A stretch of 64,000 bases of DNA, from positions 46,038 to 110,037 of the forward strand of contig CACJEE010000001.1 in the NCBI GenBank assembly GCA_902592345.1, written 5' to 3'. The first letter of the stretch is position 1. Each line of letters opens with the position of its first letter. Under the pieces are notes generated by a model. That model was not told where the DNA came from. It saw nothing but the letters and a program-made list of their open reading frames with translations, and ran no database searches. The translations under genes and the position numbers were made by a program. Below are positions 23,487 through 43,047 of this stretch, piece by piece. The stretch is from an uncultured Alphaproteobacteria bacterium (lineage in GTDB: Bacteria; Pseudomonadota; Alphaproteobacteria; HIMB59; GCA-002718135).

Positions 23487-25840
23487 GCTCTAACTCTACT
23501 TTTTGTAGGATCATAAAAAGGAAAAGGCACAACTTTAGCTGATATTCTTTTTTGATGACCATCAAGTTTGCCGATTTCAAGCTTTGTATTAAGTTCTGAT
23601 GAACGAACATCAATTCTGCTTAAGGCAATATTTTTATTTAAAGTTGGAGAAATTGTTCCACTTGTTATGATTCCAACTTGAGCTCTGCCACTATGTACAC
23701 AATCACCGTGATTAACTTTTTCATTACCTTCAATTTCTAATCCAACTAATTTTCTGTGAGGATGTTCTTTTCTCTCAACTAAAGCTTCTTTACCTATAAA
23801 ATTTTGCTCTTTAGTTTTAAGAGGAACGGTAAAGCTTATCCCAGCTTCAAAAGGATCTGTCTCATCACTAAATTCATTACCTCCTAGAATTAAACCTGCT
23901 TCAATTCTAAGTATATCAAGCGCTTCAAATCCCATTGGGGAAATATTAAATTCTTTTCCTGCATCCCATACTGCATCCCAAACTTTAGGAGCATCATTAG
24001 GGTGACAGTATATTTCAAAGCCAAGCTCACCTGTGTAACCAGTTCGTGATAACATAATTGGAATTCCTTTATGATCTCCGATTCTACTAATAGTAAAATG
24101 AAACCATTCTAAATTATTAACATCTGGATGGGCAGGAGCAGTCCATATAATTTTAGATAACACTTTTCTACTGTTTGGCCCTTGCACTGAAATATTATGT
24201 AGGTGATCTGTTGAGGACTTAATATTTGTATGGAGTTTTAATTCTTCACTTAATTGAGTGAGCCATTCTCCTGAATAATCACTACCGCAAATCCATCGAA
24301 AATTATGATCCCCTAATTTGTAGAGTGTACCATCGTCAATCATAGTTCCATTTTCGTAACACATTGCTGAATATACTACTTGACCAACTGCTAGTTTTTT
24401 TATGTTTCTTGTCAGTGCTACATTAAGTAATTCTTCAGCGTCAGGCCCAAGAACTTCAAACTTTCTTAATGATGATAAATCCATCATAACTACATTATTT
24501 CTACATTGAGTGTATTCTTTAATAGTTCCAAAATTATTAAATTTATTAGGAATCCAAAAACCTGAAGAATCCATCATATCATTTGTTAGTTTAGATGTTC
24601 TTGGGTGAAAACCTGTTTCTTTTGTTAGCATAAAATCACTTCCAGCATTTTTTCTATAACCAATAGATTTTGCAAATCTATTTTTTTCTGAATAAACTCT
24701 AACGTATATGTCTGTAGGGTTCCAGTCATTTGCAGTATCAATATCATCAGGACATGATGATGACACACATACAAGATCTTTCTGTGCTTGAAATAGGACG
24801 TAATCTCCGGGACGAGACCATGGCATGTCAGAAAAAATTACATTGTTTGCGTCTATACCAGTATTAAAAAATAAATTTATAGCAGCCCAACCATTTCTTT
24901 TTTCAATTCCATATTTATCAAGTGCATAATTAAAATTATCTGAACAATTTATATGACCAAAATATCCTTGATCTTCATATAATTTTCTTGTGCAAGCTGT
25001 TCCAAAAGTATCATGTCGACCAATAGTATCTTGCACTACCTCAACCAGAGGTTCTAGATTTTTATCAAAATATTTTGAGTGTAGACCTGGCATTGCATAT
25101 GAACCACCTAAAATTGCTCTACTTGCCGTAGTATCAATTGCAAGTTCTGTCCCATTTTGAAGTGCATTACTATCAAATGCCATAAAGTCTGAGCACTGCC
25201 TTCCAAATAAATCAATAATTTGAATATAATCTCCTTTTTTAATTTCATAAGCACTTGCAGAACTATCTTTTATTAAAAATTCTTCTTTAGGTGAAGCTAA
25301 AGGTTCAGGTAAAATCCTCTCTAATTTATTGTTTTTTGGATTTATTCTTTTAACTATAACTTCGATATCAGAAGGTGGATTTTGATTTCCAACTATCATA
25401 TTTTCACCAGGACAGGCTAAGATAATAAAACAATTTTCATTTACTGTTATATTTTCGCTATCATTTCTTTTAGAGTTTTCATTAAAATACAAAGATGAAC
25501 TAAATTTATTAAGATTAATTTTTTTATTCTTTAATTTTTGAATTAAAAATAATTTATCAGAACTGTTATTTAAAATTTCTTTCAAAAAAGAATTTTCTAT
25601 TTCAGGTTTTTTATTAATAATATTTTGATTATTATTTCCTTCACTATCAAAAATAGTTATTTCACAAATTTGATTACCTTCTAAGTTTTTAAGATATAAA
25701 TTATCCCCCTTATCTAAGTCTATACCAATTAAACCTTGTCCTTTAACAACATATCTCTCCGTATCTTCAGGAAGTCCGTATGAATCTAAGACAATAGGAT
25801 TTGATCTTCTTACTGCATATTTGTTGATATCAATATTCAT
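23483..25840 (-). CDS. tdm: trimethylamine N-oxide demethylase (DUF1989 + GcvT-like aminomethyltransferase domains)
   Basis: 785 aa. The C-terminal half has a GcvT-type folate-binding pattern (RTGYTGELGFEIY). Its stop codon overlaps the tmm stop (TTAG at 23483..23486). Confidence 0.85.
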   Translation of the reverse strand: MNIDINKYAVRRSNPIVLDSYGLPEDTERYVVKGQGLIGIDLDKGDNLYLKNLEGNQICEITIFDSEGNNNQNIINKKPEIENSFLKEILNNSSDKLFLIQKLKNKKINLNKFSSSLYFNENSKRNDSENITVNENCFIILACPGENMIVGNQNPPSDIEVIVKRINPKNNKLERILPEPLASPKEEFLIKDSSASAYEIKKGDYIQIIDLFGRQCSDFMAFDSNALQNGTELAIDTTASRAILGGSYAMPGLHSKYFDKNLEPLVEVVQDTIGRHDTFGTACTRKLYEDQGYFGHINCSDNFNYALDKYGIEKRNGWAAINLFFNTGIDANNVIFSDMPWSRPGDYVLFQAQKDLVCVSSSCPDDIDTANDWNPTDIYVRVYSEKNRFAKSIGYRKNAGSDFMLTKETGFHPRTSKLTNDMMDSSGFWIPNKFNNFGTIKEYTQCRNNVVMMDLSSLRKFEVLGPDAEELLNVALTRNIKKLAVGQVVYSAMCYENGTMIDDGTLYKLGDHNFRWICGSDYSGEWLTQLSEELKLHTNIKSSTDHLHNISVQGPNSRKVLSKIIWTAPAHPDVNNLEWFHFTISRIGDHKGIPIMLSRTGYTGELGFEIYCHPNDAPKVWDAVWDAGKEFNISPMGFEALDILRIEAGLILGGNEFSDETDPFEAGISFTVPLKTKEQNFIGKEALVERKEHPHRKLVGLEIEGNEKVNHGDCVHSGRAQVGIITSGTISPTLNKNIALSRIDVRSSELNTKLEIGKLDGHQKRISAKVVPFPFYDPTKSRVRA

Positions 25841-26858: not shown

Positions 26859-27620
26859 ATGACGCGCAATTATTTAAGTGGTTCAATAAAAAAAGCTTTA
26901 GCAATAATAGAATGTGTTGGAAAATCACCAAAACCTCTAAAAGCTAGCCAAGTTTCCTTAATTACTAAGTTAGATAGAGCCACGGCATTTAGGATTTTAA
27001 CCTATCTCACTAGCCTAGGATATATTTTTAAAGATACCTCTAATAATCTCTACTCTTTAGGACATAAAATTTTTGAGTTTGGTGATAAATCTGATTTTCT
27101 TAAAACATTGACAACTTTATGCTTTGAGTACATTAAAAATTTGTCTTACGAAACTAATCACATCACTTATCTTGCAGTCTTAGAAGGTCCTCATATTGTT
27201 TATTGTGATAAAGTTGATCCACAAGGTGAAAATGCTCCAAGAGCTTTTAGAATGAGGCTAGATGCTCACAGTTGTGCACTTGGAAAAGCAATTCTTGCTT
27301 ATAAATCAAGAGATGAATTAAGGGAAATCTATAAAAGTTATACCCTGCATAAACATACTTCAAATACCATTACTACTTTAGATAAGCTCTATCTAAATTT
27401 AGAAAAAGTAAGAAAAAAAGGCTATAGTATAAATGAAGCAGAAACATTTGATTATGTTTATGGAATAGGAGCTCCAATAATGGACTCTCAAAAAAGAGCG
27501 ATTGCAGGAATTTCAATCTCTGGAACCAAAGGAAGTATAAATGTTAAAACTGTGGAAGATTTAGCATACAAGGTCACAGATACAGCAAAAATGATATCAA
27601 AAAAATTGCTTGAAAACTAA
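26859..27620 (+). CDS. IclR-family transcriptional regulator
   Basis: 253 aa. N-terminal wHTH (KKALAIIECVG...LKASQVSLITKLDRATAFRILTYL) plus a C-terminal IclR effector domain pattern. Confidence 0.85.
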   Translation: MTRNYLSGSIKKALAIIECVGKSPKPLKASQVSLITKLDRATAFRILTYLTSLGYIFKDTSNNLYSLGHKIFEFGDKSDFLKTLTTLCFEYIKNLSYETNHITYLAVLEGPHIVYCDKVDPQGENAPRAFRMRLDAHSCALGKAILAYKSRDELREIYKSYTLHKHTSNTITTLDKLYLNLEKVRKKGYSINEAETFDYVYGIGAPIMDSQKRAIAGISISGTKGSINVKTVEDLAYKVTDTAKMISKKLLEN

Positions 27621-27710: not shown

Positions 27711-29057
27711 ATGTCTTTCCCAGAAAAGGTGGATTACGCAATTATAGGCGCAGGTATTCATGGTCTAAGCACTGCTTGGCATCTAGCTGCCAAATTAAAA
27801 GCCAAAGGAAAAGGTGATGGCTCCAAAATAGTTGTAATTGATAAAGACTCAATTGCGGCAGGTGCAAGCGGTGTTGCTTGTGGAGTGGTTCGTAATAATT
27901 ATTACCAACCTGCTATGAGAGAGTTAATGGCAATGTGTGTTGAAGTATGGGAGAGTGATGCAAAAAAATTTCATTATCATGATGTAGGTTATATGCAGAT
28001 AAGTCCTGAGTGTATGGAAAATGATGTTGCTGAAATTTATGCTCAGCAAAAAAATATTGGATACGACTCAGTTTTTATACAGGGTGAAAAAGACTCAGAA
28101 AATTATATGAAAAAAATGTTTGGTGATTGGCAAGCAAAAGGAATCACAAGTGTTTTGCATGAAAAAAGAGGTGGATATGCAAATAATACATCAGCTATTT
28201 ATGGTTTAGCAGATAAAGCTGAAGCAGAAGGTGTTCGTATCTTAACAGGGACAACAGTAAAGGGTTTTCAATATGGCTCTAACTCATCTGCTGTTACGGG
28301 CATTGAAACTGATAAGGGTTTAATAAAGTGTGATCAAGTAATAGTTGGGCCAGGGCCATGGGCAAAGTCTTTTTGGGATATGCTAGATCTGCCAAACAAA
28401 ATTACAATTAAGGGTGAAGATGGGAACATTCATAAAGATTATCCAATGTGGCATTATTGGATGTTAACTGAAGGAGTTTTAAGAGTTGATCCTAATTTTT
28501 TAAAAACTGACGACGGCAATATGCCTCCTGTTATTCATGTTGATACTGATGCACCTCTTTATTCAGACAGTGATAAGCAACATCTTATCACAGATAAATT
28601 GTGGGGAATATATTATAAGCCAGATTTTCATTTTGGAGGTATACAAGGTGGATCATCTCCTTATAAAGTTGGAGAACCTGGAGGAGAAGGGGTTAATGTT
28701 GATCCTTATGGAAATAAATCAGAAGATTTTGTTATTACTGATGAATTTGCTGATATGTGGAGTTCAGCTTTGGCTTTTTGTCATAAAAGATTTGAAGGAA
28801 AATCACACTTATTCAAAAAAGATGGGGGAGGCCTTGGTTGTTTTACGCCAGATTGCTTTCCTGTTTTTGATCAATTCAGAGAAAATGTATATTTAATTGC
28901 TGACTCTAATCATGGTTATAAAATGATTGGTGTGGGTAAATTAGTAGCTGACGAAGTTTTAGGTGAAAAAAGCTCATTATTAGAACCTTTTAGGTTTTCA
29001 AGATATGAGCAAGGAAAATTACATCCAACATCAAATAGTCCTTTTCCTTGGAGTTAA
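27711..29057 (+). CDS. FAD-dependent oxidoreductase (DAO/SoxB-like), candidate N-methylglutamate or secondary-amine oxidase/dehydrogenase
   Basis: 448 aa with N-terminal dinucleotide fold YAIIGAGIHGLSTAWHLA. First gene of the gmaS-mgs operon. Confidence 0.75.
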   Translation: MSFPEKVDYAIIGAGIHGLSTAWHLAAKLKAKGKGDGSKIVVIDKDSIAAGASGVACGVVRNNYYQPAMRELMAMCVEVWESDAKKFHYHDVGYMQISPECMENDVAEIYAQQKNIGYDSVFIQGEKDSENYMKKMFGDWQAKGITSVLHEKRGGYANNTSAIYGLADKAEAEGVRILTGTTVKGFQYGSNSSAVTGIETDKGLIKCDQVIVGPGPWAKSFWDMLDLPNKITIKGEDGNIHKDYPMWHYWMLTEGVLRVDPNFLKTDDGNMPPVIHVDTDAPLYSDSDKQHLITDKLWGIYYKPDFHFGGIQGGSSPYKVGEPGGEGVNVDPYGNKSEDFVITDEFADMWSSALAFCHKRFEGKSHLFKKDGGGLGCFTPDCFPVFDQFRENVYLIADSNHGYKMIGVGKLVADEVLGEKSSLLEPFRFSRYEQGKLHPTSNSPFPWS

Positions 29058-29101
29058 TATGATGTTGTATAGTTTTTATAATTCAATTGGGGGGAAATAA
29101 T

Positions 29102-30574
29102 ATGAGTGATTTAGAAAATTTTGTAAATCAACCAGGCAGAGATAAATTAGTTAAAGATGTAAGAAATAAAATAAAAGAATTAGGAATTACTTATATCTAT
29201 TATCAATTTGTTTCTGTAACAGGAAGAATTGTTGGTAAAGGTGTTCCTGCAGATCATTGGGAAACTTTAGCAGAAAAAGGATTTCAATTAGTTTACGGTG
29301 CTACAGCTAATTTATTTGTAGACAGGCATGGTGAATATATTGGATATGGACCTGAATCATCTGAACTTGTAGGTATTCCTGAACCTGATACATTTGTGCA
29401 ATTGCCTTGGGATAAAAGAGTTGCACGTGTTTGGTGTACTTGTTTTAGAAACAGAGAAGAAGATGAAAATCCTGGAGGACATTTAACATCTGATTGTCGT
29501 GGTAATTTAAAAATTTTCCAAGATCAATTTCAAGAAAAATTTGGAATGAATATGCGTGCTGGTACTGAGCCAGAAATGATGTGGTTGACTAAGAAAGATA
29601 ATGGAGAGCCAACAGGAGATGGATTTTCAAGACCTTATTGTTATCATATTGACCAATTTGAATCCTTAAGACCTGTATATATGAAAGTAATTGAATATTG
29701 CCGTGCTATGGGTCTTGATGTTATCCAAGGAGATCATGAAGATGCGCCTGGTCAATTAGAATTAAATTTCATGTATGATGATGTTTTAAGGAATGCTGAT
29801 AGACTAACAACTTATCGACAAATTTGTGCTCAAGTTGCAAGAGAATTTAATTTAATTGCTTGCTTTATGAGTAAACCTTTTATGGGTGTTTCTGCCAATG
29901 GATGTCATACAAATGTTTCACTTTGGAAAGGTGGAGAATTAAAATCGACACCTATTGGCAACAATCCACTACCAGGTATGGATCAAGTTTTTACACATAT
30001 TTCAGGAGGTGAAAATATGTTTATGCCTGATCCAAAAATAGATCCAGTTAAACCTGGCCCTGTTGGATTAAATAGTATTGCTGGTTTATTAAAACACTTA
30101 CCTGCTTTAACTTGTTTAGGATCTCCAACAGTTAATTCTTATAGAAGACTTTGGGATACAGGTTTCTGGGCACCAGTATATGCAGATTGGGGATATCAAA
30201 ACAGAACTTGTAGTGTTCGTGTTTCTGCCCCTGGCCGAGTAGAATACAGATCAGTAGATTCATCTCATAACCCATATCTAATGGGAGCTGGTATTTTAAA
30301 AGCTTTTGAAGATGGTCTAGATAATAAAATGGATCCAGGAGAACCTGAGAAAAAAAATATTTATGATGCAATGAAAGAAGGCAAAACAGTTGATAAACTT
30401 CCTTTAACTTTAGGCGAAGCTATTGATCGATTAGATAGTGATAAAGTGGTTAAAGCCGCATTGCCTGAAGATATGCTTAGAGTCTTTATGCATTATAAAA
30501 AAGATGAGTGGGAAAAATTCCTTTCTGCAGTTACACAATGGGATGTTGATACTTACTTGGACGTATTGCCATAA
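29102..30574 (+). CDS. gmaS: gamma-glutamylmethylamide synthetase (glutamine synthetase family)
   Basis: I take ATG 29102 (MSDLENF...), preceded by GGGGGGAAATAAT. GS catalytic-domain motifs are present (EPEMMWL, GCHTNVSLW, NSYRRL). Linked to mgsABC. Confidence 0.8.
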   Translation: MSDLENFVNQPGRDKLVKDVRNKIKELGITYIYYQFVSVTGRIVGKGVPADHWETLAEKGFQLVYGATANLFVDRHGEYIGYGPESSELVGIPEPDTFVQLPWDKRVARVWCTCFRNREEDENPGGHLTSDCRGNLKIFQDQFQEKFGMNMRAGTEPEMMWLTKKDNGEPTGDGFSRPYCYHIDQFESLRPVYMKVIEYCRAMGLDVIQGDHEDAPGQLELNFMYDDVLRNADRLTTYRQICAQVAREFNLIACFMSKPFMGVSANGCHTNVSLWKGGELKSTPIGNNPLPGMDQVFTHISGGENMFMPDPKIDPVKPGPVGLNSIAGLLKHLPALTCLGSPTVNSYRRLWDTGFWAPVYADWGYQNRTCSVRVSAPGRVEYRSVDSSHNPYLMGAGILKAFEDGLDNKMDPGEPEKKNIYDAMKEGKTVDKLPLTLGEAIDRLDSDKVVKAALPEDMLRVFMHYKKDEWEKFLSAVTQWDVDTYLDVLP

Positions 30575-30594
30575 TATAAGAAAGGATAATTAGT

Positions 30595-31536
30595 ATGTGC
30601 GGAATTGCTGGAATAATTCACAAAGGTAAATCTACAAACGTAGGTGGAGAAATGCAAAAAATGCTGCAATCTCTAAAACATCGAGGACCAGACTCAACTG
30701 GCTATGCTTTATATGGAAATGGTGAGTCGAATAATTATATTTTAAGATTTAAAGTTGGTGAAAATGTCAAAGAAGGTAGTTCTGCAGTAATGGAGGATGA
30801 AAGTGTCTATCAAGAAAGGGTAGAACAGGTAAATTCAAAAATATCTACTTCAGGCGCAACTCTTCATAAAGAAGAGCAGATCACCCCATATTCTTATAGA
30901 TATGTAATTTCTTATGATGGAGATTTACTTGATTTAGCAAAACAAATTGAATCAGTTGAAATGACAGAAATTTTATCTCTAGGTAAGTCACTGGAATTAA
31001 TAAAAGATATCGGTGATGCTTCAGTTGTTGCTAACCAATATGATCTCAGTGATTTTGCTGGTACTCATGGCATTGGGCACACTAGAATGGCAACTGAATC
31101 TGGTGTGGATATTCGTTCTGCTCATCCATATTGGGCGTATCCATTTAGTGATGTATCCGTTGTTCATAATGGTCAATTAACAAATTATTGGAATAATCGT
31201 AGAGCTCTTGAAAAAAAAGGGATGCGCTTTATGTCTACATGTGACTCTGAGCTAATTGCAGTTTATCTTGCTGATAAAATACGTAATGGAATAGATCTAG
31301 AAGAAGCGATGAGAGGATCCTTAGATGACTTGGATGGCGTGTTTACATATTTAGTCGCAACGAAAGATAAATTAGGAATGGCAAAAGATCATATGGCTGC
31401 TAAACCAATGGTATTGTATGAAAGTGATGATTTGGTAGCACTTGCTTCCGAAGAAGTTGCGATAAGAACCGTTCTTCCTGAAGAGATCGACACTTATGAT
31501 CCATATGAAGGAGAGGTAAAAGTATGGCAAGCATAA
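30595..31536 (+). CDS. mgsA: N-methylglutamate synthase subunit A (class-II glutamine amidotransferase-like)
   Basis: 313 aa with the N-terminal nucleophile MCGIAG and a GHTRMATES motif. Confidence 0.8.
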   Translation: MCGIAGIIHKGKSTNVGGEMQKMLQSLKHRGPDSTGYALYGNGESNNYILRFKVGENVKEGSSAVMEDESVYQERVEQVNSKISTSGATLHKEEQITPYSYRYVISYDGDLLDLAKQIESVEMTEILSLGKSLELIKDIGDASVVANQYDLSDFAGTHGIGHTRMATESGVDIRSAHPYWAYPFSDVSVVHNGQLTNYWNNRRALEKKGMRFMSTCDSELIAVYLADKIRNGIDLEEAMRGSLDDLDGVFTYLVATKDKLGMAKDHMAAKPMVLYESDDLVALASEEVAIRTVLPEEIDTYDPYEGEVKVWQA

Positions 31537-32366
31537 AAAAACATAAATCTACTGAAATGGGTTTGCATGATGAAGTTTTAACAGGCCGTACCCAACAAGT
31601 TTTTTTTAATCCAGAAGAGACAGAAAATTTCTTTTATCATGACGCCCATAAAGTTGACTTTAATAAAAGAACAGAAATTGATGCAAATAATTTAGAATGT
31701 ATTAATATCAATAGAAAAATAAACGAACTAATGGCTAAAGGTTATGGAACAATTGTCATAAAAAATCCTGGATCAAAACATAGTATAGGTGTTGGAATTT
31801 TAAATAAACTGAACTTAATTATAGAAGGTAGTCTTGGATATTTTGGAATAGGTTCAGTTGATGGGCCTGTTGTAAGAATATCTGGAAGAGTTGGCTGGTC
31901 TTGTGCTGAAAATATGATGGCTGGTAAAGTTGTTGTAGAAAAAAATGCCGGATCTTGTTTTGGAGCAGCAATTAGAGGTGGAGATTTAATTTGCAAAGGA
32001 AGTGTTGGCGCTAGATCAGGTATTGATATGAAAGGTGGCACTATTATAGTAGGTGGAGATGCCGGAGCCTTTACAGGCTTTATGATGCAACGAGGAAGAA
32101 TAGTTATTCTTGGAGATGTTGGTCCTAATTTAGGTGACTCACTTTATGATGGCACTATTTTTGTTGGAGGTTCAATTAAATCATTAGGCGCTGATGCTGT
32201 TGAGGCGGAGCTAACTGATTTAGATATAGCTTGGTTAAAAAGAAAAATAAAAGTTTCCGAAATTGATAAAAAAATTGATTATAAAAAAATTACAAAAATT
32301 GTTTCAGGAAAAAAATTATGGAATTACGATAATTTAGAACCAACTGAGAGAAAAGGTGCAATTTAG
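31524..32366 (+). CDS. mgsB: N-methylglutamate synthase subunit B (GXGXG-motif domain)
   Basis: 280 aa. Glycine-rich beta-helix repeats as in the GltB C-terminal domain. 13-nt overlap with mgsA. Confidence 0.8.
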   Translation: MASIKKHKSTEMGLHDEVLTGRTQQVFFNPEETENFFYHDAHKVDFNKRTEIDANNLECININRKINELMAKGYGTIVIKNPGSKHSIGVGILNKLNLIIEGSLGYFGIGSVDGPVVRISGRVGWSCAENMMAGKVVVEKNAGSCFGAAIRGGDLICKGSVGARSGIDMKGGTIIVGGDAGAFTGFMMQRGRIVILGDVGPNLGDSLYDGTIFVGGSIKSLGADAVEAELTDLDIAWLKRKIKVSEIDKKIDYKKITKIVSGKKLWNYDNLEPTERKGAI

Positions 32367-32379
32367 AAAGGATTGAATA

Positions 32380-33729
32380 ATGGCTAAAAAAAATAAAAAA
32401 AATACAGATAAAAGTTTATTAGGTCGTAATTCAATTTTTACTCCTGATGTAATAAACGATATTCATATTAAGTCGCAGTTAGGCAGATACCGTATGCGTG
32501 GTATGGCTCTTATGAAAAAAATACCTCACTGGGATGATTTAACATTCTTACCTGGCACTCTTACTAGATTTGTAATTGAAGGGTATAGAGAGAAATGTGA
32601 AACAAAGACTGTAATTGGTCCACGATGTAAAAACCCAATAGAATTAGATATTCCAGTTTATATAACTTCAATGAGCTTTGGCGCTTTATCTTATGAAGCA
32701 AAAACTGCACTTGCAAGAGGAGCAACAATGGCTGGAAGCGCAACATGTTCAGGTGAAGGTGGAATGATTCCAGATGAAAGAAGATATTCTCACAAGTGGT
32801 ATTATCAATGTATTCAATCTCGATATGGTTTTAATCCGCACCATGCTCAATTAGCGGATGGAATAGAAGTATTTATAGGACAGGGTCAGAAAGTTGGAAT
32901 GGGTGGACATTTGATGGGACAAAAAGTTACTGACCAAGTTGCTGAAATGAGGTCTTTACCCGCTGGTATTGATCAGAGATCACCGGCTAGACATCCTGAC
33001 TGGTTAGGGCCTGATGATCTGGCATTAAAAGTGCAGGAACTTAGAGAATTAACTGATAACCAAGTACCGATTCAATTAAAACTTGGTGCAGCTAAAGTTT
33101 ATGATGATGTTAGAATGGCAGCTAAATGTGATCCAGACTCTATTTATTTAGATTGTATGGAAGGCTCAACTGGTGCAGGCCCTCATATTGCTGCAGCTAA
33201 TACAGGTATTCCTGGTATAGCAGCCGTAAGAGAAGCAAGAAGAGCATTAGATGATGTAGGGAAATCAGGAGATGTTACTTTAATTTTTGCAGGTGGACTT
33301 AGAGATGGGGCAGATATGGCAAAAGCTTTAGCACTAGGCGCTGATTGTATTTCTGTTGGCACAGGTGCATTAGTTGCACTTAATTGCAATAAAGATATTC
33401 CGGAAGCTGATTTTGAAAAAGAATTAGGAGTAGAGGCAGGGTACTGCTATCATTGTCATACAGGAAGATGTCCAGTAGGTGTTGCAACCCAAGATCCTGA
33501 ATTAAGAAAAAGATTAAATCCAGATGATGCAGCGCTTAGGGTTTATAACTATTTACATGCGATGACCTTAGAGGCTCAACTTTTAGCAAGAGCATGCGGT
33601 AAAACCAACATTCATTCATTAGAACCAGAAGATCTTGCTGCATTGACTATGGAAGCATCTGCACTTGCAAAAGTACCACTTGCAGGAACAGATCATACAG
33701 TAGGTGTTGACAACTTCCATTCAATTTAG
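32380..33729 (+). CDS. mgsC: N-methylglutamate synthase subunit C (FMN-dependent glutamate-synthase-like domain)
   Basis: 449 aa with MSFGALS and GEGG motifs and a C-terminal GGLRDGADMAKALALGAD FMN-barrel pattern. Confidence 0.8.
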   Translation: MAKKNKKNTDKSLLGRNSIFTPDVINDIHIKSQLGRYRMRGMALMKKIPHWDDLTFLPGTLTRFVIEGYREKCETKTVIGPRCKNPIELDIPVYITSMSFGALSYEAKTALARGATMAGSATCSGEGGMIPDERRYSHKWYYQCIQSRYGFNPHHAQLADGIEVFIGQGQKVGMGGHLMGQKVTDQVAEMRSLPAGIDQRSPARHPDWLGPDDLALKVQELRELTDNQVPIQLKLGAAKVYDDVRMAAKCDPDSIYLDCMEGSTGAGPHIAAANTGIPGIAAVREARRALDDVGKSGDVTLIFAGGLRDGADMAKALALGADCISVGTGALVALNCNKDIPEADFEKELGVEAGYCYHCHTGRCPVGVATQDPELRKRLNPDDAALRVYNYLHAMTLEAQLLARACGKTNIHSLEPEDLAALTMEASALAKVPLAGTDHTVGVDNFHSI

Positions 33730-33738
33730 GAGATACAT

Positions 33739-34155
33739 ATGGTTAAGAAAAAAAATAAAAAAACTTTAAAAAAGAAAGTCAAATCTTCTAAACAAAAAGA
33801 TAAAGGCATTAAAACTGCTAGGGAAAAAATGATAGGTCAACATATTGGCTATCGCTATGATGTTAACCTATTACCTGATTATAATCGATTAACTCCCTTT
33901 TTAAAAAAATATATTGAGCACATGGGTTGGGATGATCTAAACTGGCTGGAAGATGTTCATATGGGATATGAAAATGGTAAACCTGCTGTGTTTGACAGAA
34001 ATATAAATGGATGGGTTACAACTCCACCAAAATTAAAATTGCCAAAAGATCAACAAGATCGAGATATGATAGCAAGAGAATTATTAATTAAATTTCAAAT
34101 GTCTTCAAATCACCCTCTTGTTGTATTAAAGAAGGCATATAAAAAATTTAATTAA
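33739..34155 (+). CDS. hypothetical protein with a lysine-rich N-terminus
   Basis: 138-aa ORF starting 9 nt after mgsC, with TAGGAG 6 nt upstream of the ATG. I recognise no family. Confidence 0.55.
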   Translation: MVKKKNKKTLKKKVKSSKQKDKGIKTAREKMIGQHIGYRYDVNLLPDYNRLTPFLKKYIEHMGWDDLNWLEDVHMGYENGKPAVFDRNINGWVTTPPKLKLPKDQQDRDMIARELLIKFQMSSNHPLVVLKKAYKKFN

Positions 34156-34253
34156 AATTTTTTAAAAGTTAATACAAAAATTTTTTATATTTAGCTCTTG
34201 CTTTTATAAGATTATATATATTTATGTATTGAGTTATTTTAGTTTATAATTTT

Positions 34254-35141
34254 ATGTGTGGTATAGTAGGTTTATATTTAAAAAAGAAAAAATTGCATAA
34301 TAAACTTGGGTTTTATTTAAGTGGTATGCTTGATAATATGTCATCAAGAGGACCGGACTCTGCAGGTTTTGCAATATATAATAATAAAGAATCAAAAAAA
34401 TATTATAAATATTCCCTTTGTTTAAATAACACATTATCAAGTGATTTTGAGCAAGTTGTTAATCAAAAATTTAAAGATATCACAATAAAAAATATTTCAG
34501 ATCATATAGTTGTTCAAACAACGACTACACCTAAAAAATTTATTTCTTATATTCATAAAAATTTTAGACTAATTTCATTAGTAGGTTATGGAAAATCAAT
34601 CGAAATTTTTAAACAAGTTGGAAATCCATCAGAAATAGTTAAAAAATTTAAGCTAGAAAATTTTTCTGGCTCACATGCAATCGGTCATACTAGAATGGCA
34701 ACTGAAAGTGCAATAACAGTCAATGGATCACATCCTTATTCAACTGGAGAAGATGAATGTTTAGTTCATAATGGCTCTTTATCTAATCACAACAATCTAA
34801 GAAGACAATTAATTAAAAAAGGTAAAACATTTGATTCTTTAAATGATACTGAAGTAGCTGCAGGTTATATAAGCCAAAAATTATCAGAAAATAAATCAAT
34901 GAAAAAAACTTTAACAGAATCTCTTACAGATTTAGATGGTTTTTATACTTTTATTGCTGGTACTAATAAAGGATTTGCTGTCTTAAGAGATGAAATTGCT
35001 TGTAAGCCTGCTGTCATAGCAGAAAATAATGACTATGTTGCTGTAGCTTCTGAATTTCAGGCTATGGCCCATCTTCCTTATGTTAATAAATCTAATATTT
35101 ATGAGCCAAAACCAGGAGTTGTATATACATGGGGAAAATAG
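34254..35141 (+). CDS. class-II glutamine amidotransferase-like protein, MgsA paralog
   Basis: 295 aa with the MCGIVG nucleophile and a GHTRMATES motif. By eye, far more positions differ from mgsA than match. Confidence 0.8.
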   Translation: MCGIVGLYLKKKKLHNKLGFYLSGMLDNMSSRGPDSAGFAIYNNKESKKYYKYSLCLNNTLSSDFEQVVNQKFKDITIKNISDHIVVQTTTTPKKFISYIHKNFRLISLVGYGKSIEIFKQVGNPSEIVKKFKLENFSGSHAIGHTRMATESAITVNGSHPYSTGEDECLVHNGSLSNHNNLRRQLIKKGKTFDSLNDTEVAAGYISQKLSENKSMKKTLTESLTDLDGFYTFIAGTNKGFAVLRDEIACKPAVIAENNDYVAVASEFQAMAHLPYVNKSNIYEPKPGVVYTWGK

Positions 35142-35824
35142 AAAATTTAGATTTTAAAAAAAACACTTTAAGAAAAATAAATAATTATCTCCAAAACATT
35201 AGTTATAAAAATAACAAAAGAGAATTTACTGTAAAAAATCCAAGTGGGCATCATGCTATATGTGCAGGATTAACTGAAAACATATTCGTAAAAATTAATG
35301 GACATGTTGGATATTATTGTGGAGGTATGAATCAAAAAGCACATATTACTATTAATGGTAATGCTGGGACTGGCTTAGGTGAAAATATGATGTCTGGTTT
35401 AATCCATGTAAAGGGTAATGCCTCGCAGTCTGCTGGTGCTACTGCACATGGGGGGACAATTATTATAGATGGTGACGCTAGCTCTCGCTGTGGTATTTCA
35501 ATGAAAGGTATTGATATAATTGTTAAAGGGTCTGTAGGTCATATGTCTGGATTCATGGCTCAATCAGGAACAATGCTTATTTGTGGTGATGCTGGTGAAG
35601 CACTTGGTGATAGTATCTATGAGACTGTTATCTATTTAGCAGGAAAACCAAAGAGTTTAGGTGTTGACTGTGTTGAAAAAAAAATAAACAAAAAAGATAT
35701 AAAAAAAATTGAAGATTTATTGAAAACTGGAAAGATAAAAAAATTTAAAGTAAAAGATTTTAAAAAATTTGGATCTCAGAGAAAACTATATAATTTTAAT
35801 ATAGATAACGTCTCTGATTATTAG
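35129..35824 (+). CDS. GXGXG-motif protein, MgsB paralog
   Basis: 231 aa of glycine-rich repeats. It has the same 13-nt overlap with the upstream gene as the mgsA/mgsB pair. Confidence 0.8.
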   Translation: MGKIENLDFKKNTLRKINNYLQNISYKNNKREFTVKNPSGHHAICAGLTENIFVKINGHVGYYCGGMNQKAHITINGNAGTGLGENMMSGLIHVKGNASQSAGATAHGGTIIIDGDASSRCGISMKGIDIIVKGSVGHMSGFMAQSGTMLICGDAGEALGDSIYETVIYLAGKPKSLGVDCVEKKINKKDIKKIEDLLKTGKIKKFKVKDFKKFGSQRKLYNFNIDNVSDY

Positions 35825-35825
35825 T

Positions 35826-37157
35826 ATGGCAAAAAAGAAAAAAAAAATATTCACAACTCCACGTAAATCATGGACTTTTGACGATTATACAAATTCAGAA
35901 ATAAGAAGAGCAGCTGCAACTGGTATTTATGATATTCGTGGTGGTGGCTCAAAAAGAAAACTACCTCATTTTGATGACCTACTTTTTTTAGGAGCATCTA
36001 TGTCTCGGTATCCTCTTGAGGGTTATAGAGAAAAATGTTTAACGAATGTTGTTTTAGGATCACGTTATGCAAAAAATCCTTTAGAACTTGATATTCCAAT
36101 AACAATTGCAGGTATGAGTTTCGGAGCATTATCTGGCCCGGCTAAAGAAGCTTTAGGTAGGGGTGCATCTATAGCTGGAACCTCAACTACAACTGGAGAT
36201 GGAGGTATGACCAAAGAAGAGAGAGGTCAATCTAAAACACTTGTATACCAACTTCTTCCTTCTCGTTATGGAATGAATCCTGAAGATTTGAGAAAAGCTG
36301 ATGCAATTGAAGTTGTTATTGGTCAAGGAGCAAAACCTGGTGGTGGAGGTATGTTATTAGGTCAAAAAATTAGTGACCGTGTGGCAGAAATGAGAGATCT
36401 ACCCAAAGGGATAGATCAAAGATCAGCATGCCGACATCCTGATTGGACAGGCCCTGATGATCTAGCGATAAAAATTACTGAACTTAGGGAAATAACACAA
36501 TGGAAAGTCCCTATCTTTGTTAAAATTGCAGGAGCTAGACCGTACTATGATACTGCCTTAGCTATAAAAGCGGGAGCTGATGTAGTTGTGCTTGATGGTA
36601 TGCAGGGTGGAACAGCAGCAACTCAAGAAGTTTTTATTGAAAATGTTGGACAACCTACATTAGCTTGCATACGTCCCGCAGTCGACGCACTTCAAGATTT
36701 AAATATGCATCGAAAAGTGCAACTTATTATTTCTGGAGGCATTCGAAATGGAGCCGATGTGTCTAAGGCACTTGCTTTAGGTGCAGACGCCGTATCAATT
36801 GGGTCGGCAGCTATGATAGCGATTGGTGATAATGATCCTAAATGGGAAAAAGAATATAAAAAACTTGGAAGTGTATCCGGAGCATATGACGATTGGCATG
36901 AAGGTAATGATCCTGCGGGTATATCTACTCAAGATAAAAATTTAATGAAAAGATTAGATCCTATTAAAGCAGGTAAAAAATTATCTAATTATTTAAAAGT
37001 TATGACTTTAGAAGCACAAACAATAGCAAGGGCTTGCGGTAAAAATAATTTGCATAATTTAGAACCTGAGGATCTTTGTGCTTTAACTGTTGAATCTGCT
37101 GCTATGGCTCGAGTTCCTTTAGCTGGCACGAACTGGATACCTGGTTTTGATAAATAA
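35826..37157 (+). CDS. FMN-dependent glutamate-synthase-like protein, MgsC paralog
   Basis: 443 aa with MSFGALS, GDGG and GGIRNGADVSKALALGAD motifs collinear with mgsC. Confidence 0.8.
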   Translation: MAKKKKKIFTTPRKSWTFDDYTNSEIRRAAATGIYDIRGGGSKRKLPHFDDLLFLGASMSRYPLEGYREKCLTNVVLGSRYAKNPLELDIPITIAGMSFGALSGPAKEALGRGASIAGTSTTTGDGGMTKEERGQSKTLVYQLLPSRYGMNPEDLRKADAIEVVIGQGAKPGGGGMLLGQKISDRVAEMRDLPKGIDQRSACRHPDWTGPDDLAIKITELREITQWKVPIFVKIAGARPYYDTALAIKAGADVVVLDGMQGGTAATQEVFIENVGQPTLACIRPAVDALQDLNMHRKVQLIISGGIRNGADVSKALALGADAVSIGSAAMIAIGDNDPKWEKEYKKLGSVSGAYDDWHEGNDPAGISTQDKNLMKRLDPIKAGKKLSNYLKVMTLEAQTIARACGKNNLHNLEPEDLCALTVESAAMARVPLAGTNWIPGFDK

Positions 37158-37210
37158 TTTTTAATTTATAATTTCGTATTACAAATAAATTTTTATAGAT
37201 AAGTAAATTG

Positions 37211-37819: not shown

Positions 37820-37871
37820 TTAAATACAAATAACCTGTTTAATATATATATTATAATTTCTATAAAAATCA

Positions 37872-38414
37872 TTAAATTTGCTTAAATTTATTTTTGATTG
37901 GAGAAAAATGAAATATTTCAATATTTGCATTTAAATATGGGTTAAAGAAAAAATTATGCCAAAATGTATATTTCCACCTTGAATCGTTTTTTTTTAATTT
38001 AATAATATTAACTGGAAAAGAAAAACCGGTATCTCTCTCAAAAAATTGTGTATTTAATTTTTTTTTCTTAATAATTTTTTTATATAATTCTGAATTAACA
38101 TCAAAAGTAGCAGCAAAGGAACCATCAAAGTTAGCGGGGGTATTATAATATTCTGATGAAAGAAGTTTTACAATTTTATCAAACCTTATTTCAGGTTCAT
38201 TAGTTTGTTTAATCATAAATTCAAACATTTTAGCTGTATCATTGCAGTTTTTTTCTAGTAGTACTGATCTAATACTACAAAGTTCTTTGTTTGATTTAAT
38301 TTCTGAAAGATTAGCTAATGTTCCTTCAGATGGTTTTCCACTAAACATCCTGAAATTACGTTGTCGAATACTGCACTGCCAAACAACAAAATCACTCCAA
38401 CCAATCTTTGACAT
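37872..38414 (-). CDS. hypothetical protein
   Basis: 180-aa ORF starting 15 nt downstream of the GS-like gene on the same strand. I recognise no family. Confidence 0.5.
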   Translation of the reverse strand: MSKIGWSDFVVWQCSIRQRNFRMFSGKPSEGTLANLSEIKSNKELCSIRSVLLEKNCNDTAKMFEFMIKQTNEPEIRFDKIVKLLSSEYYNTPANFDGSFAATFDVNSELYKKIIKKKKLNTQFFERDTGFSFPVNIIKLKKNDSRWKYTFWHNFFFNPYLNANIEIFHFSPIKNKFKQI

Positions 38415-38429
38415 GTTTAATTTATAAAT

Positions 38430-39785
38430 TTAACAATCTAAAGTATTATCTCTTTCCCATTGAGTTATTATATTAGATTTATTTGATTTCGATTTTTTGA
38501 AGCCAATTCTTTTTTCTTGAGATGAATTATACTTTTTAATTTCTCTATTTTTTAACGTTATGTAGGAATTGATAACATCTTTACCAAAAGCAGACTTAAG
38601 AACTTTACTTTTATTTAGATTATTTAATGCTTGATTTAAACTTAATGGTAATTTTTTTGCACCTTTAACTTTATGCGCTTCTTCATACATATTAACTTTA
38701 ATAGGTTTACCTGGGTTTCTTTTTTTATCCAAACCATCTAATCCTGCTGCAATAATTCCAGCTTGTAATAAATAAGGATTAGTTGCTCCATCCATTAACC
38801 TTAATTCAAATCTACCTGAGCCGGGAACACGTATCATATGAGTTCTATTATTACCAGAATAGGTAATAGTGTTAGGAGACCAAGTAGCTCCAGAATCAGT
38901 AACAGGAGCATTAATTCTTTTATAACTATTAATGGTTGGATTAAACCACGCAGTTAAAGCTTCAGCTGAGTTCATAATTCCACCCATAAAATGGTAAGCA
39001 GTTTTTGATAAGCCTAATTGATCTTTTTTATCTAAAAATAAATTCTTACCTTTTTTATTCCAGATTGATAGGTGCGCATGACACCCATTTCCAGTTTTAT
39101 CTATAAAGGGTTTTGGCATAAAGGTAGCTCTTAAACCTACTTTTTCTGCTAAAGTTCTAACCATAAATTTAAAAAAAACATGTCGGTCAGCCGTTTGTAG
39201 GCAGTCTGAAAAATCCCAATTCATTTCAAATTGTCCATTAGCATCTTCATGATCATTTTGGTATGGACCCCAACCAAGCATAATCATTGAATCACATATA
39301 CCTCTAATTAAATCATACTGACGCATCAATGCAGATTGATCATAGCAAGGTTTATCAGCAATATCTTTTTGATCTGCAATAGAATCACCACTTGGAGAAA
39401 TTAAAAAATATTCACATTCAACACCACTTTTTAAGTGCATATTCTTCTTTGCTAATTTATTAATTTGATTACGTAACATAACGCGAGGAGAGGCATCTAC
39501 TGGTTTACCATCCATCCATAAATCTGCTGCTAACCAACCAACATCCATTTGCCATGGAAGTTGTATAAAACTATTCGGATCAGGTATTGCAGCCATATCT
39601 GGGTCAGATGGAGACATATCTAAGTACGTAGAAAAACCAGCAAATCCTGCACCTTCTTTTTGCATTTCTTTTATAGATTGAGCAGGGACTAATTTAGATC
39701 TAAGTACTCCAAAAAAATCTACATAACTTATTAAAAAGTATTTTATTTTTTTCTTTTTTGCGACCTCCGCCAAGTTTATAGCCAT
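38430..39785 (-). CDS. glutamine synthetase family protein (gamma-glutamyl-amine synthetase-like, PuuA/GlnA-like)
   Basis: 451 aa with GS motifs GVECEYFL, NGCHAHLSIW and NSYKRI. A Lys/Ser-rich C-terminal tail of about 30 aa is not typical of GS. Confidence 0.8.
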   Translation of the reverse strand: MAINLAEVAKKKKIKYFLISYVDFFGVLRSKLVPAQSIKEMQKEGAGFAGFSTYLDMSPSDPDMAAIPDPNSFIQLPWQMDVGWLAADLWMDGKPVDASPRVMLRNQINKLAKKNMHLKSGVECEYFLISPSGDSIADQKDIADKPCYDQSALMRQYDLIRGICDSMIMLGWGPYQNDHEDANGQFEMNWDFSDCLQTADRHVFFKFMVRTLAEKVGLRATFMPKPFIDKTGNGCHAHLSIWNKKGKNLFLDKKDQLGLSKTAYHFMGGIMNSAEALTAWFNPTINSYKRINAPVTDSGATWSPNTITYSGNNRTHMIRVPGSGRFELRLMDGATNPYLLQAGIIAAGLDGLDKKRNPGKPIKVNMYEEAHKVKGAKKLPLSLNQALNNLNKSKVLKSAFGKDVINSYITLKNREIKKYNSSQEKRIGFKKSKSNKSNIITQWERDNTLDC

Positions 39786-41744: not shown

Positions 41745-41800
41745 ATCGTTCATCTCATTAATTGAGTGAGACGGAAGTAGGTGAAATCCGAAGGAACGCA
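41745..41800 (+). promoter_or_regulatory. glutamine riboswitch (glnA RNA motif) in the amt leader
   Basis: AUCGUUCAUCUCAUUAAUUGAGUGAGACGGAAGUAGGUGAAAUCCGAAGGAACGCAG. P1 is CGUUC (41747-41751) paired with GAACG (41794-41798). The conserved ACGGAAGUAGG and CGAAGGAACGC cores are present. Located upstream of an ammonium transporter, a typical context. Confidence 0.8.
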
Positions 41801-41809
41801 GTTCATTCC

Positions 41810-41880: not shown

Positions 41881-43047
41881 ATGACGTTGGAAGAATTAAA
41901 TGTTTTTGTCACCACACAAGCAAACGTGGGCATGGAAGCTTACTATTGGTGGTGTACAGGACTAATGATTATTATTCACGTTGGTTTCTTAATGTATGAA
42001 GTAGGCGCTACAAGAATGCAAAATGCTGTTTCTTCAGGTGTTAAAAATTTATTAGCATTTGCATTTATGATACCAACATTTTGGCTATTTGGATGGTGGA
42101 TCTACTTAGCTTTTCCAGGAGGATTTGTACCTATTGATTTAGAAGGATACGGAGTTCCATGGAATGTTTCAATGGGACCAATGCTAAGTGACCAAGCTAC
42201 CGGTGTATTCTGGGCTGCATTTACTCTATTTGCTTGTACTACTGCTTCAATTTTTTCTGGAGCTGTAATTGAAAGAATTAGAATTAGTGCATTTGTATTT
42301 CTAGCAGTTGTTTTAGGATCTGTTGTTTGGATTTTAGCAGCTTCTTGGGGATGGCATCCAGATGGATGGCTTGTAACTGGATGGGGATTCCATGACGTAG
42401 CGGCTGCAGGGTGTGTTCACACTGTTGCAGGACTATTTGCATTTGGGGTGCTTTTAAACCTTGGACCAAGAGTAGGAAAATATAATGATGATGGCTCTAT
42501 GAATGATCTTGAAGGTCATAGCTTAGTTCTATCTTTTGTTGGCTTATTAACTTTGATTGTAGGTTTCTTTGGATTCCTAGGAGCTTGTTTAATTTGGGCA
42601 GGATCAGATTTTGGAGGTTGGGTAAATATTTATGGTGCACCAGCTACATTATCTTCTTTTGCATTCAATACTTTGATGGGTCTAGCTGGAGGCATGATCG
42701 GTGCTTTCTGGTGGAGTAAAGGAAATCCTTTCTGGATGATGTCAGGTGGACTAGCAGGTATATTCATATGTGCTGGTGGTCTTGATATTTGGTATCCTGG
42801 GTTTGCATTTATTCTTGGAACAGTTGCAGGATGTGTAATTATTCCAGCAAACAATTGGCTTCATAACACTTTTAAAATAGATGACTGTGTAGGAGCAGTA
42901 TCAATTCACGGTGTTTGTGGTATCTTAGGTATGTTGTGTGTAGGACTTTTTGCTTCTGGTTTTCCAGCAGCAGGAGATATTCCAGCTTCAAATCTAACTG
43001 GTCAAATTGTTGGTGCTATTGTATGTTTTATATGCAAGTTTAGCTGA
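41881..43047 (+). CDS. amt: ammonium transporter (Amt family), apparently truncated at the 3' end
   Basis: 388 aa with conserved DVAAAGCVHTVAG and SIHGVCGILG (twin-His) motifs and a strong AAGGAGG SD. The ORF ends (…GQIVGAIVCFICKFS*) only part-way into the expected 11th TM helix. Confidence 0.8.
   Translation: MTLEELNVFVTTQANVGMEAYYWWCTGLMIIIHVGFLMYEVGATRMQNAVSSGVKNLLAFAFMIPTFWLFGWWIYLAFPGGFVPIDLEGYGVPWNVSMGPMLSDQATGVFWAAFTLFACTTASIFSGAVIERIRISAFVFLAVVLGSVVWILAASWGWHPDGWLVTGWGFHDVAAAGCVHTVAGLFAFGVLLNLGPRVGKYNDDGSMNDLEGHSLVLSFVGLLTLIVGFFGFLGACLIWAGSDFGGWVNIYGAPATLSSFAFNTLMGLAGGMIGAFWWSKGNPFWMMSGGLAGIFICAGGLDIWYPGFAFILGTVAGCVIIPANNWLHNTFKIDDCVGAVSIHGVCGILGMLCVGLFASGFPAAGDIPASNLTGQIVGAIVCFICKFS

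Follow-up and report, generated by a model that had tools for sequence, protein, structure and literature searches.

A stretch of 64,000 nucleotides from an uncultured alphaproteobacterium (GTDB lineage HIMB59, GCA-002718135; contig CACJEE010000001.1 of assembly GCA_902592345.1, positions 46,038 to 110,037), hereafter the window, carries in tandem two sets of three genes related to the split, glutamate-synthase-like enzyme MgsABC. The upstream set is referred to here as trio 1 (subunits A1, B1 and C1) and the downstream set as trio 2 (A2, B2 and C2). According to the comparisons described below, the region is predicted to encode two non-orthologous versions of one enzyme system. The architecture is very probably as follows: trio 2 is the canonical set, and trio 1 is part of another operon, close to tdm, the gene for the trimethylamine N-oxide (TMAO) demethylase. 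Trio 2 and the glutamine synthetase (GS)-like ligase encoded at 38430 are assigned by homology to the canonical alphaproteobacterial GmaS-MgsABC (GlxBCD-GlnT) module. Trio 1, on the other hand, is predicted to be the core of a tight operon located downstream of an IclR regulator and near tdm, and this operon appears to be conserved as a unit of its own across two distant phyla, often near a TMAO demethylase gene. An earlier note on this DNA, made by reading the sequence, had labelled the two trios the other way round.

Several features described in the earlier note are borne out. The two trios are complete, in tandem, and consist of the same domains in one order; the Pfam families GATase_6/7, GXGXG and Glu_synthase were detected in the open reading frames (ORFs) of both, with E-values from 1e-14 to 1e-87. 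The motifs that had been quoted are read in the translations, i.e., MCGIAG and MCGIVG, IGHTRMATES in both trios, MSFGALS in both, and GGLRDGAD and GGIRNGAD; likewise, the AT-rich spacer of 98 bp is present between the two sets. The strong divergence that was noted by eye corresponds to BLASTP identities of 34% for the A subunits (2e-53), 39% for B (4e-35) and 51% for C (1e-137). B2 begins approx. 37–49 residues after the start of B1, in agreement with the 45 residues estimated before, and B1 shows an N-terminal extension that brings it to 280 residues, versus 224–231 in canonical MgsB. The tandem arrangement is repeated on four other marine contigs with identical C1, and over 8000 near-identical relatives were found in marine metagenomes for C2, as well as for the small protein encoded after trio 1; therefore, the arrangement is not an assembly artefact. 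A recent duplication was also ruled out, given the 34–51% identity and the conservation on independent contigs, and the proposal of old paralogues kept under purifying selection stands. The trios can thus be regarded, far beyond chance, as real and anciently diverged paralogues. On one related SAR11 single-cell contig (L005, 8215–9157), A1 is interrupted, giving ORFs of 216 and 101 residues, which reflects either a frameshift or a sequencing error. A scan of the spacer gave one weak promoter-like match and no terminator-like site, which is not above the shuffled expectation; across 26700–39900 fewer promoter and terminator sites were found than in shuffled controls, so that the scan has no bearing on the spacer as a boundary between transcription units.

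The identity of trio 2 was established by comparison with clusters in which these genes have been named or lie in synteny. The plasmid pRL11 of Rhizobium johnstonii carries a cluster with the order soxBDAG(mgd)-glxA-mgsA-mgsB-mgsC-glnT-purU-dmmDABC-tmm, and the cluster from Paracoccus alcaliphilus is similar. A2, B2 and C2 are 46, 49 and 84% identical to the R. johnstonii proteins, versus 36, 43 and 51% for A1, B1 and C1. The operon on plasmid pAMI6 of P. aminophilus was named mgsABC-gmaS (Dziewit et al. 2015); here, the identities are 47, 50, 79 and 55% for A2, B2, C2 and the 38430 ligase, versus 33, 39, 50 and 33% for A1, B1, C1 and GS1, the GS-like ligase encoded at 29087, directly before trio 1. 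When P. alcaliphilus is included, A2 is 46–47% and A1 33–36% identical to MgsA, B2 is 49–50% and B1 38–43% identical to canonical MgsB, and C2 is 84, 81 and 79% identical to MgsC from R. johnstonii, P. alcaliphilus and P. aminophilus, respectively. C2 is also 66% identical to the beta-type MgsC of Aquabacterium, encoded in a glnT-mgsABC operon. In tblastn searches on plasmids, C2 reached 84% identity with proteins from Rhizobium and Sinorhizobium, and C1 at most 54% with any protein.

The same result was obtained with the ligases and with the trees. The identity of the 38430 ligase to Rhizobium GlnT is 58% (versus 30% for GS1 and 33% for a third GS-like ligase, encoded at 43147); it is 54–58% identical to GmaS from Rhizobium and Paracoccus, and it scores 566 bits against the crystallised GmaS from Rhodovulum (7cql). 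It passes the GmaS/GlnT model TIGR03105, with which GS1 reaches 311 bits, below the cutoff of 469.6. In neighbour-joining trees of the C subunit, built with few sequences and with the Methyloversatilis and Methylocella MgsABC represented by named or syntenic proxies, C2 is part of a canonical clade with Rhizobium, two Paracoccus and the betaproteobacterial Aquabacterium sequences (100% bootstrap); C1 and actinobacterial sequences form a separate clade (100% bootstrap), and the FMN domain of E. coli GltB falls outside. The grouping of trio 2 with bona fide glutamate synthases, which the earlier note had considered, is therefore contradicted by this phylogeny. In addition, it has been reported that glxBCD from HTCC1062 is the top match to M. 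universalis NMGS, and these genes were proposed to encode an N-methylglutamate synthase (Sun et al. 2011). Trio 2 and the 38430 ligase share with the GmaS-MgsABC pathway the domain types and their order, the high identity of MgsC, and the Ala and Trp replacements at the GS catalytic positions described below. The identities, the full support in the trees and the match to GmaS argue together that trio 2 is canonical, and that the labels of the earlier note were reversed.

That earlier assignment, with trio 1 as the standard MgsABC and trio 2 as a novel set associated with the ligases at 38430 and 43147, almost certainly does not hold. It could be argued in its favor that a GS-like gene lies directly before trio 1, as in the betaproteobacterial gmaS-mgsABC order, and that the figure legends for HTCC1062 give GmaS and MgsABC without stating which paralogue is meant. 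Nevertheless, all three subunits of trio 2 are nearer to the named or syntenic MgsABC (46–47, 49–50 and 79–84% identity versus 33–36, 39–43 and 50–51% for trio 1), the canonical clade that holds C2 is fully supported, and the 38430 ligase is an orthologue of GmaS. As for the 43147 gene, it is missing from the related contigs and belongs to a variable island.

The operon that contains trio 1 includes six genes (27711–34155), i.e., a flavoprotein of the DAO family, GS1, A1, B1, C1 and the gene for a small protein, referred to here as sm. Since the gaps between them, from the DAO gene to sm, are of 29, 20, -13, 13 and 9 bp, followed by 98 bp to A2, these genes read as one operon. The gene for the IclR regulator also lies beside the DAO gene on related SAR11 contigs, and the operon is near tdm on related contigs as well as in the window. 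The DAO flavoprotein has only distant matches to the beta subunit of sarcosine oxidase, to dimethylglycine oxidase and to the beta subunit of proline dehydrogenase. GS1 is 29–33% identical to canonical GmaS; an alternative ATG at 29102 would yield a protein of 490 residues, as called on related contigs. The G+C content is 35–37% across the trio-1 region (30001–34000), versus 28% in 34001–36000, the first half of trio 2, in a window with approx. 30–31% G+C; this could be the result of a foreign origin or of a stronger amino-acid constraint.

The small ORF after C1, described as unknown by the earlier note, turned out to be no bystander but a conserved fourth gene of the trio-1 operon. The best 120 listed of more than 8000 marine relatives of sm are all at least 85% identical, and the motif D(L/I)NWLEDV..G.PAVFDR is shared by its homologues. 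A hidden Markov model of sm did not match any protein in canonical, ipu-like or Gemmataceae loci, and sm seems to occur only in trio-1-type operons. The AlphaFold model of sm was obtained from a shallow alignment, with a mean pLDDT of 65, and when it was compared with PDB using Foldseek no structure was found with E < 1. Trio-1-type operons were defined by the order GS1-A1-B1-C1-sm and by the motif NC..C..C....CP in the C subunit, all of which are present at 29087–34155 of the window. The partner of the unusual trio is the ligase at 29087, outside the coordinates covered by the earlier note. The second gamma-glutamyl or N-alkylglutamate pathway that the note had suggested is a reasonable reading, but it would belong with trio 1 and the 29087 ligase and not with trio 2.

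Trio 1 shares with the GmaS-MgsABC pathway the domain types and their order, the upstream GS-like ligase, the Cys1 and FMN motifs, and an insertion in the C subunit. The differences are also clear: trio 1 forms a separate clade, with C at most 51% and A and B 33–43% identical to their counterparts; GS1 belongs to another subfamily of GS-like proteins, with approx. 30% identity to GmaS; the heterotetrameric MgdABCD of the known pathway contrasts with the monomeric DAO-type flavoprotein and the additional protein of 138 residues; and, among the loci examined, the operon shows linkage to tdm but in no case to dmmABC.

The distribution of this operon was investigated starting from C1. A HMMER scan of 1.84 billion cluster representatives retrieved few full-length close relatives, one actinobacterial with 74% identity and one from Gemmataceae with 59%, followed by the general family. 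The C homologues from Gemmataceae stand alone, without trio or ligase, and therefore give no information on function. When C2, sm and a Gemmataceae C homologue were used as protein queries, close relatives saturated the results, and no distant context emerged. The 74% relative is encoded on a high-GC contig with a GS1-like ligase, A, B, C and an ORF of 144 residues homologous to sm. One genome per GTDB species was then scanned with the peptide patterns KWYYQCI and IFTP[ED]VIN, taken from the alignment of C1 with its actinobacterial relative at sites that differ in C2. The patterns matched 599 stretches, 564 of which were confirmed (more than 560 species genomes).

The counts that follow refer to the best 80 of at least 564 loci, with neighbours considered within 10 kb. 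These loci are annotated as Thermoleophilia (Gaiellales, Solirubrobacterales) or come from unclassified actinobacterial bins, and one is labelled Chloroflexi. C1 is 72–76% identical to the Thermoleophilia proteins (tblastn) and A1 55–60%. The order GS1-A1-B1-C1 is conserved in 72/80 loci, with GS1 orthologues of 46–64% identity before A1, and the remainder are cut by contig ends; a homologue of sm follows C1 in all 78 loci with enough downstream sequence. Of these loci, 27 have an orthologue of the DAO flavoprotein (37–59%), whose gene frequently comes immediately after that of sm, and 14–15 have a full-length Tdm (48–59%). DmmA/B/C and Tmm were found in none of the 80 loci, amt was found in four and a canonical GmaS-like ligase in two. 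Other recurrent neighbours are genes for GcvT-like proteins (20 loci), IclR regulators (19), APC permeases (18), aldehyde dehydrogenases (15) and EamA transporters (11), and genes for Sox/Mgd-like heterotetramers occur in approx. 11 loci. Both types of module lie side by side in at least two Thermoleophilia loci (L020 and L055).

A block that includes genes for an ACAD-like flavoprotein/monooxygenase, Tdm, a PhyH-type Fe/2-oxoglutarate dioxygenase and a flavin reductase was observed in seven of these loci (L018, L037, L043, L052, L053, L079 and L085). Some of the flavin reductases have a cNMP-binding domain, and neither Tmm nor DmmABC is encoded nearby. The ACAD-like and PhyH proteins may be alternative oxygenases for trimethylamine or dimethylamine. 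The plasmid searches did not reveal any trio-1-type operon from cultured organisms; what they yielded was limited to GS1-like ligases within ipu/puu-like clusters.

The active sites of the three GS-like proteins of the window were compared with E. coli GlnA. In GS, Asp50' and Glu327 (E. coli numbering) bind and deprotonate ammonium. The position of Asp50 is occupied by Val in GS1 and by Ala in the ligases at 38430 and 43147, and that of Glu327 by Trp in the three proteins, which keep the metal and ATP ligands; from these residues, none of them is expected to be a true glutamine synthetase. The same two positions have been described as replaced in GmaS (Wang et al.; PMC7948447). GS1 keeps the seven residues of the methylamine pocket of RhGmaS, according to the list given in PMC7948447, and the pocket of the third ligase is unlike that of GmaS.

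Outside the operon, the nearest relatives of GS1, with 40–52% identity, were found on plasmids of Paracoccus, Ruegeria and Rhodococcus, where no trio accompanies them and the surrounding genes encode aldehyde dehydrogenases, PuuD-like gamma-glutamyl hydrolases and P450/ferredoxin components. In Paracoccus sp. TOH p2 (L092) and on a plasmid of Ruegeria sp. SCSIO 43209 (L093), two GS-family genes lie in tandem, and one member of each pair is 48–52% identical to GS1. They lie with genes for an aldehyde dehydrogenase, a type-1 amidotransferase/PuuD-like hydrolase, a P450 and a 2Fe-2S ferredoxin, and these two loci are probably ipu-like clusters for alkylamines. The Ipu, Puu and actinobacterial GlnA-like pathways would share with GS1 the first step, the ATP-dependent gamma-glutamylation of an amine. 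In those clusters, oxidation of the alkyl chain of the gamma-glutamyl amide precedes its hydrolysis, and no MgsABC-like trio is present; in contrast, the GS1-type ligase of the trio-1 operon is always accompanied by the trio, with sm after it.

The ALNC...CYHCHTGRCPVG region of C1 has Cys residues at the three positions that ligate the 3Fe-4S cluster in GltS, and a fourth Cys; the motif NC...C..C....CP is conserved in C1 and in its 80 Thermoleophilia orthologues, and none of the four Cys is present in C2 or in MgsC from Rhizobium and Paracoccus. An Fe-S cluster is thus probably present in one of the two paralogues of this genome and absent from the other. These residues were considered as a sign of GOGAT-like external electron input (GOGAT being glutamate synthase), but this idea was dropped, since the beta-type MgsC of Aquabacterium, a canonical protein, keeps the motif. 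Therefore, its loss is peculiar to the alpha-type canonical clade, and its presence neither proves a different chemistry nor is diagnostic of GOGAT.

It is very improbable that trio 1 and GS1 constitute a true archaeal-like split GS-GOGAT, in which the Fe-S cluster would take electrons and glutamine and 2-oxoglutarate would be converted to two molecules of glutamate. The Cys residues aligned with the GltS ligands, the intact Cys1 and FMN-barrel motifs, and the annotation as gltB2 of the presumed counterpart in HTCC1062 would be in line with such an enzyme, and the three subunits do match the amidotransferase, FMN and GXGXG domains of GltS. Nevertheless, C1 is just 31% and C2 27% identical to the FMN domain of E. 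coli GltB, and the trios score 127–128 bits on model NF008730, far from its cutoff of 1047. An insertion of approx. 18 residues is common to C1, C2, canonical MgsC and the Gemmataceae protein, and it is not found in GltB or in archaeal-type relatives; therefore, both trios belong to one MgsC-like family. Furthermore, the trios do not have the central domain of GltS, and the stretch 26859–39785 contains no gene for a GltD-type NAD(P)H subunit or for another dedicated electron donor. A split GOGAT is also unlikely because the partner ligases lack Asp50 and Glu327 and are not true GS, which applies to the ammonia-assimilating enzyme that the earlier note had suggested for one of the sets. Finally, an amine-oxidase-type flavoprotein is encoded in the operon, with tdm nearby, and the presumed HTCC1062 counterparts fall, and do not rise, under nitrogen limitation.

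Most likely, by analogy with the GmaS/MgsABC/Mgd pathway, trio 1 would carry out the conversion of a gamma-glutamyl amide to an N-alkylglutamate, with a methylated amine made downstream of Tdm. In the proposed mechanism, GS1 would couple glutamate, through its gamma-carboxyl, with a small alkylamine at the expense of ATP; the Cys1 amidotransferase A1 would cleave the gamma-glutamyl amide and hand the amine to C1, with B1 acting as a scaffold; C1, at its FMN site, would join the amine with the 2-oxoglutarate/iminoglutarate skeleton and reduce the product to N-alkylglutamate; and the DAO flavoprotein, in place of the heterotetrameric MgdABCD, would remove the alkyl group oxidatively, yielding glutamate and formaldehyde. 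The small protein sm would be an accessory subunit specific to this version. The complete pathway with monomethylamine as substrate is evenly poised between right and wrong. Monomethylamine itself is a conservative guess, to which we give slightly less than even weight, because the pocket of GS1 is GmaS-like, because most of the tdm-proximal Thermoleophilia loci show no canonical module, and because the PhyH and ACAD-like proteins are candidates for the preceding steps. Dimethylamine is a possible but clearly less favored substrate, and another small amine is less likely still.

Several points weigh against this proposal. The mechanism rests wholly on analogy, and with monomethylamine there would be two modules for one amine in the streamlined genome of SAR11. 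The literature on SAR11 describes soxBDAG/mgd-type operons, so that the DAO gene would encode an additional demethylase. Elsewhere than in this operon, the proteins closest to GS1 are encoded in ipu/puu-like clusters, which serve bulkier amines, and the linkage to tdm is frequent, not universal. Seven Thermoleophilia loci have the DAO gene as well as a Sox/Mgd-like operon within 10 kb of the trio-1-type operon, a situation in which two successive demethylations fit better than one.

It was considered that the trio-1 operon might act on an amine other than that of trio 2, chiefly dimethylamine, the product of Tdm, in a route independent of Dmm in SAR11 and in Thermoleophilia; we judge this doubtful. 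In this route, GS1 would form gamma-glutamyl-dimethylamide, and trio 1 would turn this amide into N,N-dimethylglutamate, from which N-methylglutamate would be produced by the DAO flavoprotein; enzymes of the MgdABCD type would take the second methyl group. In favor of this route, SAR11 does not have dmmDABC (Lidbury 2017), though HTCC1062 grows on TMAO as nitrogen source, and an unidentified 'isoenzyme of DmmDABC' has been postulated (Gao 2022). There is no Dmm homologue in the window, and the operon is near tdm here, on related contigs and repeatedly in Thermoleophilia, where DmmABC was absent from the 80 loci. The Km of canonical GmaS is 16 mM for dimethylamine versus 27 uM for methylamine, a difference of approx. 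600-fold (PMC7948447), and therefore a dedicated ligase would be needed. That a streamlined genome keeps both full modules, and that both types are present in L020 and L055, argues against redundancy, and the DAO gene with a Sox/Mgd-like operon in seven loci would parallel the succession of dimethylglycine and sarcosine.

However, the chemistry of this route is undescribed throughout, i.e., the formation and hydrolysis of a tertiary amide and the reduction of an iminium to a tertiary amine, and its intermediates in bacteria were reported by no paper found in the literature searched. Moreover, the pocket residues of GS1 are the same as those of the methylamine-specific GmaS. In Thermoleophilia, the PhyH dioxygenase and the ACAD-like monooxygenase with flavin reductase flank tdm more tightly than the operon does; these enzymes could convert dimethylamine to methylamine and trimethylamine to TMAO, which would leave monomethylamine for the operon.

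The features of the window are listed in Table 1.

Table 1. Genes and other elements of the window discussed in the text, with the basis of each assignment.
Feature	Position	Strand	Basis
tmm, trimethylamine monooxygenase	22152..23486	+	NCBIfam NF058570, 745 bits (cutoff 675)
tdm, TMAO demethylase	23483..25840	-	NCBIfam NF053776, 1111 bits (cutoff 1100); Pfam DUF1989 and GCV_T
Choline/ethanolamine-kinase-fold gene	25909-26784	-	Between tdm and IclR gene
IclR-family regulator, upstream of trio-1 operon	26859..27620	+	NCBIfam IclR-type matches
DAO-family FAD amine oxidoreductase, first gene of trio-1 operon	27711..29057	+	Pfam DAO, 8.5e-35
GS1, GS-like ligase, predicted gamma-glutamyl-alkylamide synthetase, trio-1 partner	29087..30574	+	Gln-synt_C, 1.2e-80
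A1, class-II (Ntn, Cys1) amidotransferase subunit, 313 residues	30595-31536	+	GATase_6/7
B1, GXGXG beta-helix subunit, 280 residues	31524-32366	+	Pfam GXGXG, 2e-15
C1, FMN-barrel subunit, 449 residues	32380-33729	+	Glu_synthase, 2.4e-87
sm, conserved protein of 138 residues, fourth gene of the trio-1-type operon core	33739-34155	+	No Pfam or NCBIfam match
Spacer between the two modules, 98 bp, 88% A+T	34156-34253		Base composition
A2, MgsA (GlxB), canonical, 295 residues	34254-35141	+	GATase_6/7; identity to named MgsA
B2, MgsB (GlxC), canonical, 231 residues	35129-35824	+	GXGXG; identity to named MgsB
C2, MgsC (GlxD), canonical alphaproteobacterial type, 443 residues	35826-37157	+	Glu_synthase; tree
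Flavodoxin-fold/FMN-reductase-like gene	37211-37819	-	Between mgsC and ORF of 180 residues
ORF of 180 residues, function unassigned, directly downstream of gmaS	37872..38414	-	No family match
gmaS (annotated glnT), canonical gamma-glutamylmethylamide synthetase, trio-2 partner, convergent	38430..39785	-	TIGR03105, 626 bits (cutoff 469.6)
Glutamine riboswitch upstream of amt	41745..41802	+	Rfam RF01739, 64 bits (gathering score 35)
amt, ammonium/methylammonium transporter family gene	41881..43047	+	Pfam Ammonium_transp on equivalent gene of related contigs
Third GS-like ligase (471 residues), heading a minus-strand block	43147-46504	-	GS-like; followed by EutQ-like cupin, ORF of 140 residues, Rieske oxygenase
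ORF of 248 residues, TmpA/gamma-butyrobetaine dioxygenase-like	47055-47801	+	Partial profile match

Upstream of tmm, a betaine/choline-type ABC transporter is encoded, whose NCBIfam matches are below cutoff or at the subfamily level only; presumably it transports TMAO. The best NCBIfam match of the choline/ethanolamine-kinase-fold gene is GntI, the pre-guanitoxin N-oxide kinase (154 bits versus a cutoff of 357), and this gene, which adjoins the TMAO genes, occupies an identical position in four related SAR11 contigs. The flavodoxin-fold gene is missing from the four related SAR11 contigs and is therefore a strain-specific insertion. In contrast, the small ORF after gmaS is kept as a gene of 181–184 residues at the matching position on related SAR11 contigs; no comparable small gene was found beside glnT in the Rhizobium and Paracoccus mgsABC-glnT clusters examined.

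Past gmaS, the window contains two genes for EamA transporters, the glutamine riboswitch, amt and the third GS-like gene. The riboswitch, the sole Rfam match in the window, lies approx. 80 bp before amt. The block of 43147–46504 is missing from related SAR11 contigs and is therefore a variable island. Its ORF of 140 residues has a glyoxalase/VOC-type look, judged from the translation alone, and its Rieske oxygenase has a partial GbcA-like match. The ORF at 47055–47801 covers only the C-terminal two-thirds of the models (profile positions 120–363 of 366); it represents either a gene that was truncated or one that encodes the domain alone.

The gene content of the window matches the list published for Candidatus Pelagibacter ubique HTCC1062, which includes SAR11_1302 (opuAC), 1303 (aminomethyltransferase), 1304 ('monomeric sarcosine oxidase'), 1305 (glnT), 1308 (gltB2), 1310 (amt), 1313–1315 (glxBCD) and 1316 (glnT). 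SAR11_1304 appears to be the counterpart of the DAO flavoprotein. Taken together with the base composition and the matches in marine metagenomes, this agreement suggests that the window is SAR11-like. Both sets are thus already annotated in this organism, as gltB2 and glxBCD, and proteins from both (SAR11_1305, 1308, 1313, 1315 and 1316) have been quantified in its proteomes. In methylamine-growing Mycobacterium, a Gma-MgsABC cluster was described near Tmd (McTaggart et al. 2015). In the literature searched, no paper separates the two sets or assigns the cluster near tdm, none mentions the small protein sm or the conservation across phyla, and nothing was found on gamma-glutamyl-dimethylamide, N,N-dimethylglutamate, SAR11_1305–1308 or another way for SAR11 to use dimethylamine.

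Methylated amines are a major source of nitrogen and energy in the sea and precursors of aerosols, and SAR11 bacteria are their most abundant consumers; gmaS serves as a marker gene for methylamine users. The present results correct which genes are to be called mgsABC and gmaS, i.e., trio 2 and the ligase at 38430, and indicate that counts based on marker genes or of the KEGG style may merge two systems. The route from TMAO to ammonium in SAR11 has been left open in published work (Gao 2022; Lidbury 2017). The trio-1 operon, common to SAR11 and to the abundant Thermoleophilia of soils, is a testable candidate for the missing step or for a second N-methylglutamate pathway, with a monomeric dehydrogenase and an extra subunit. 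If dimethylamine were its substrate, the 'metabolic bottleneck' proposed for this compound in the surface ocean would be removed, and a new chemistry of tertiary amides and tertiary amines would be added to the GS and GltS-like families.

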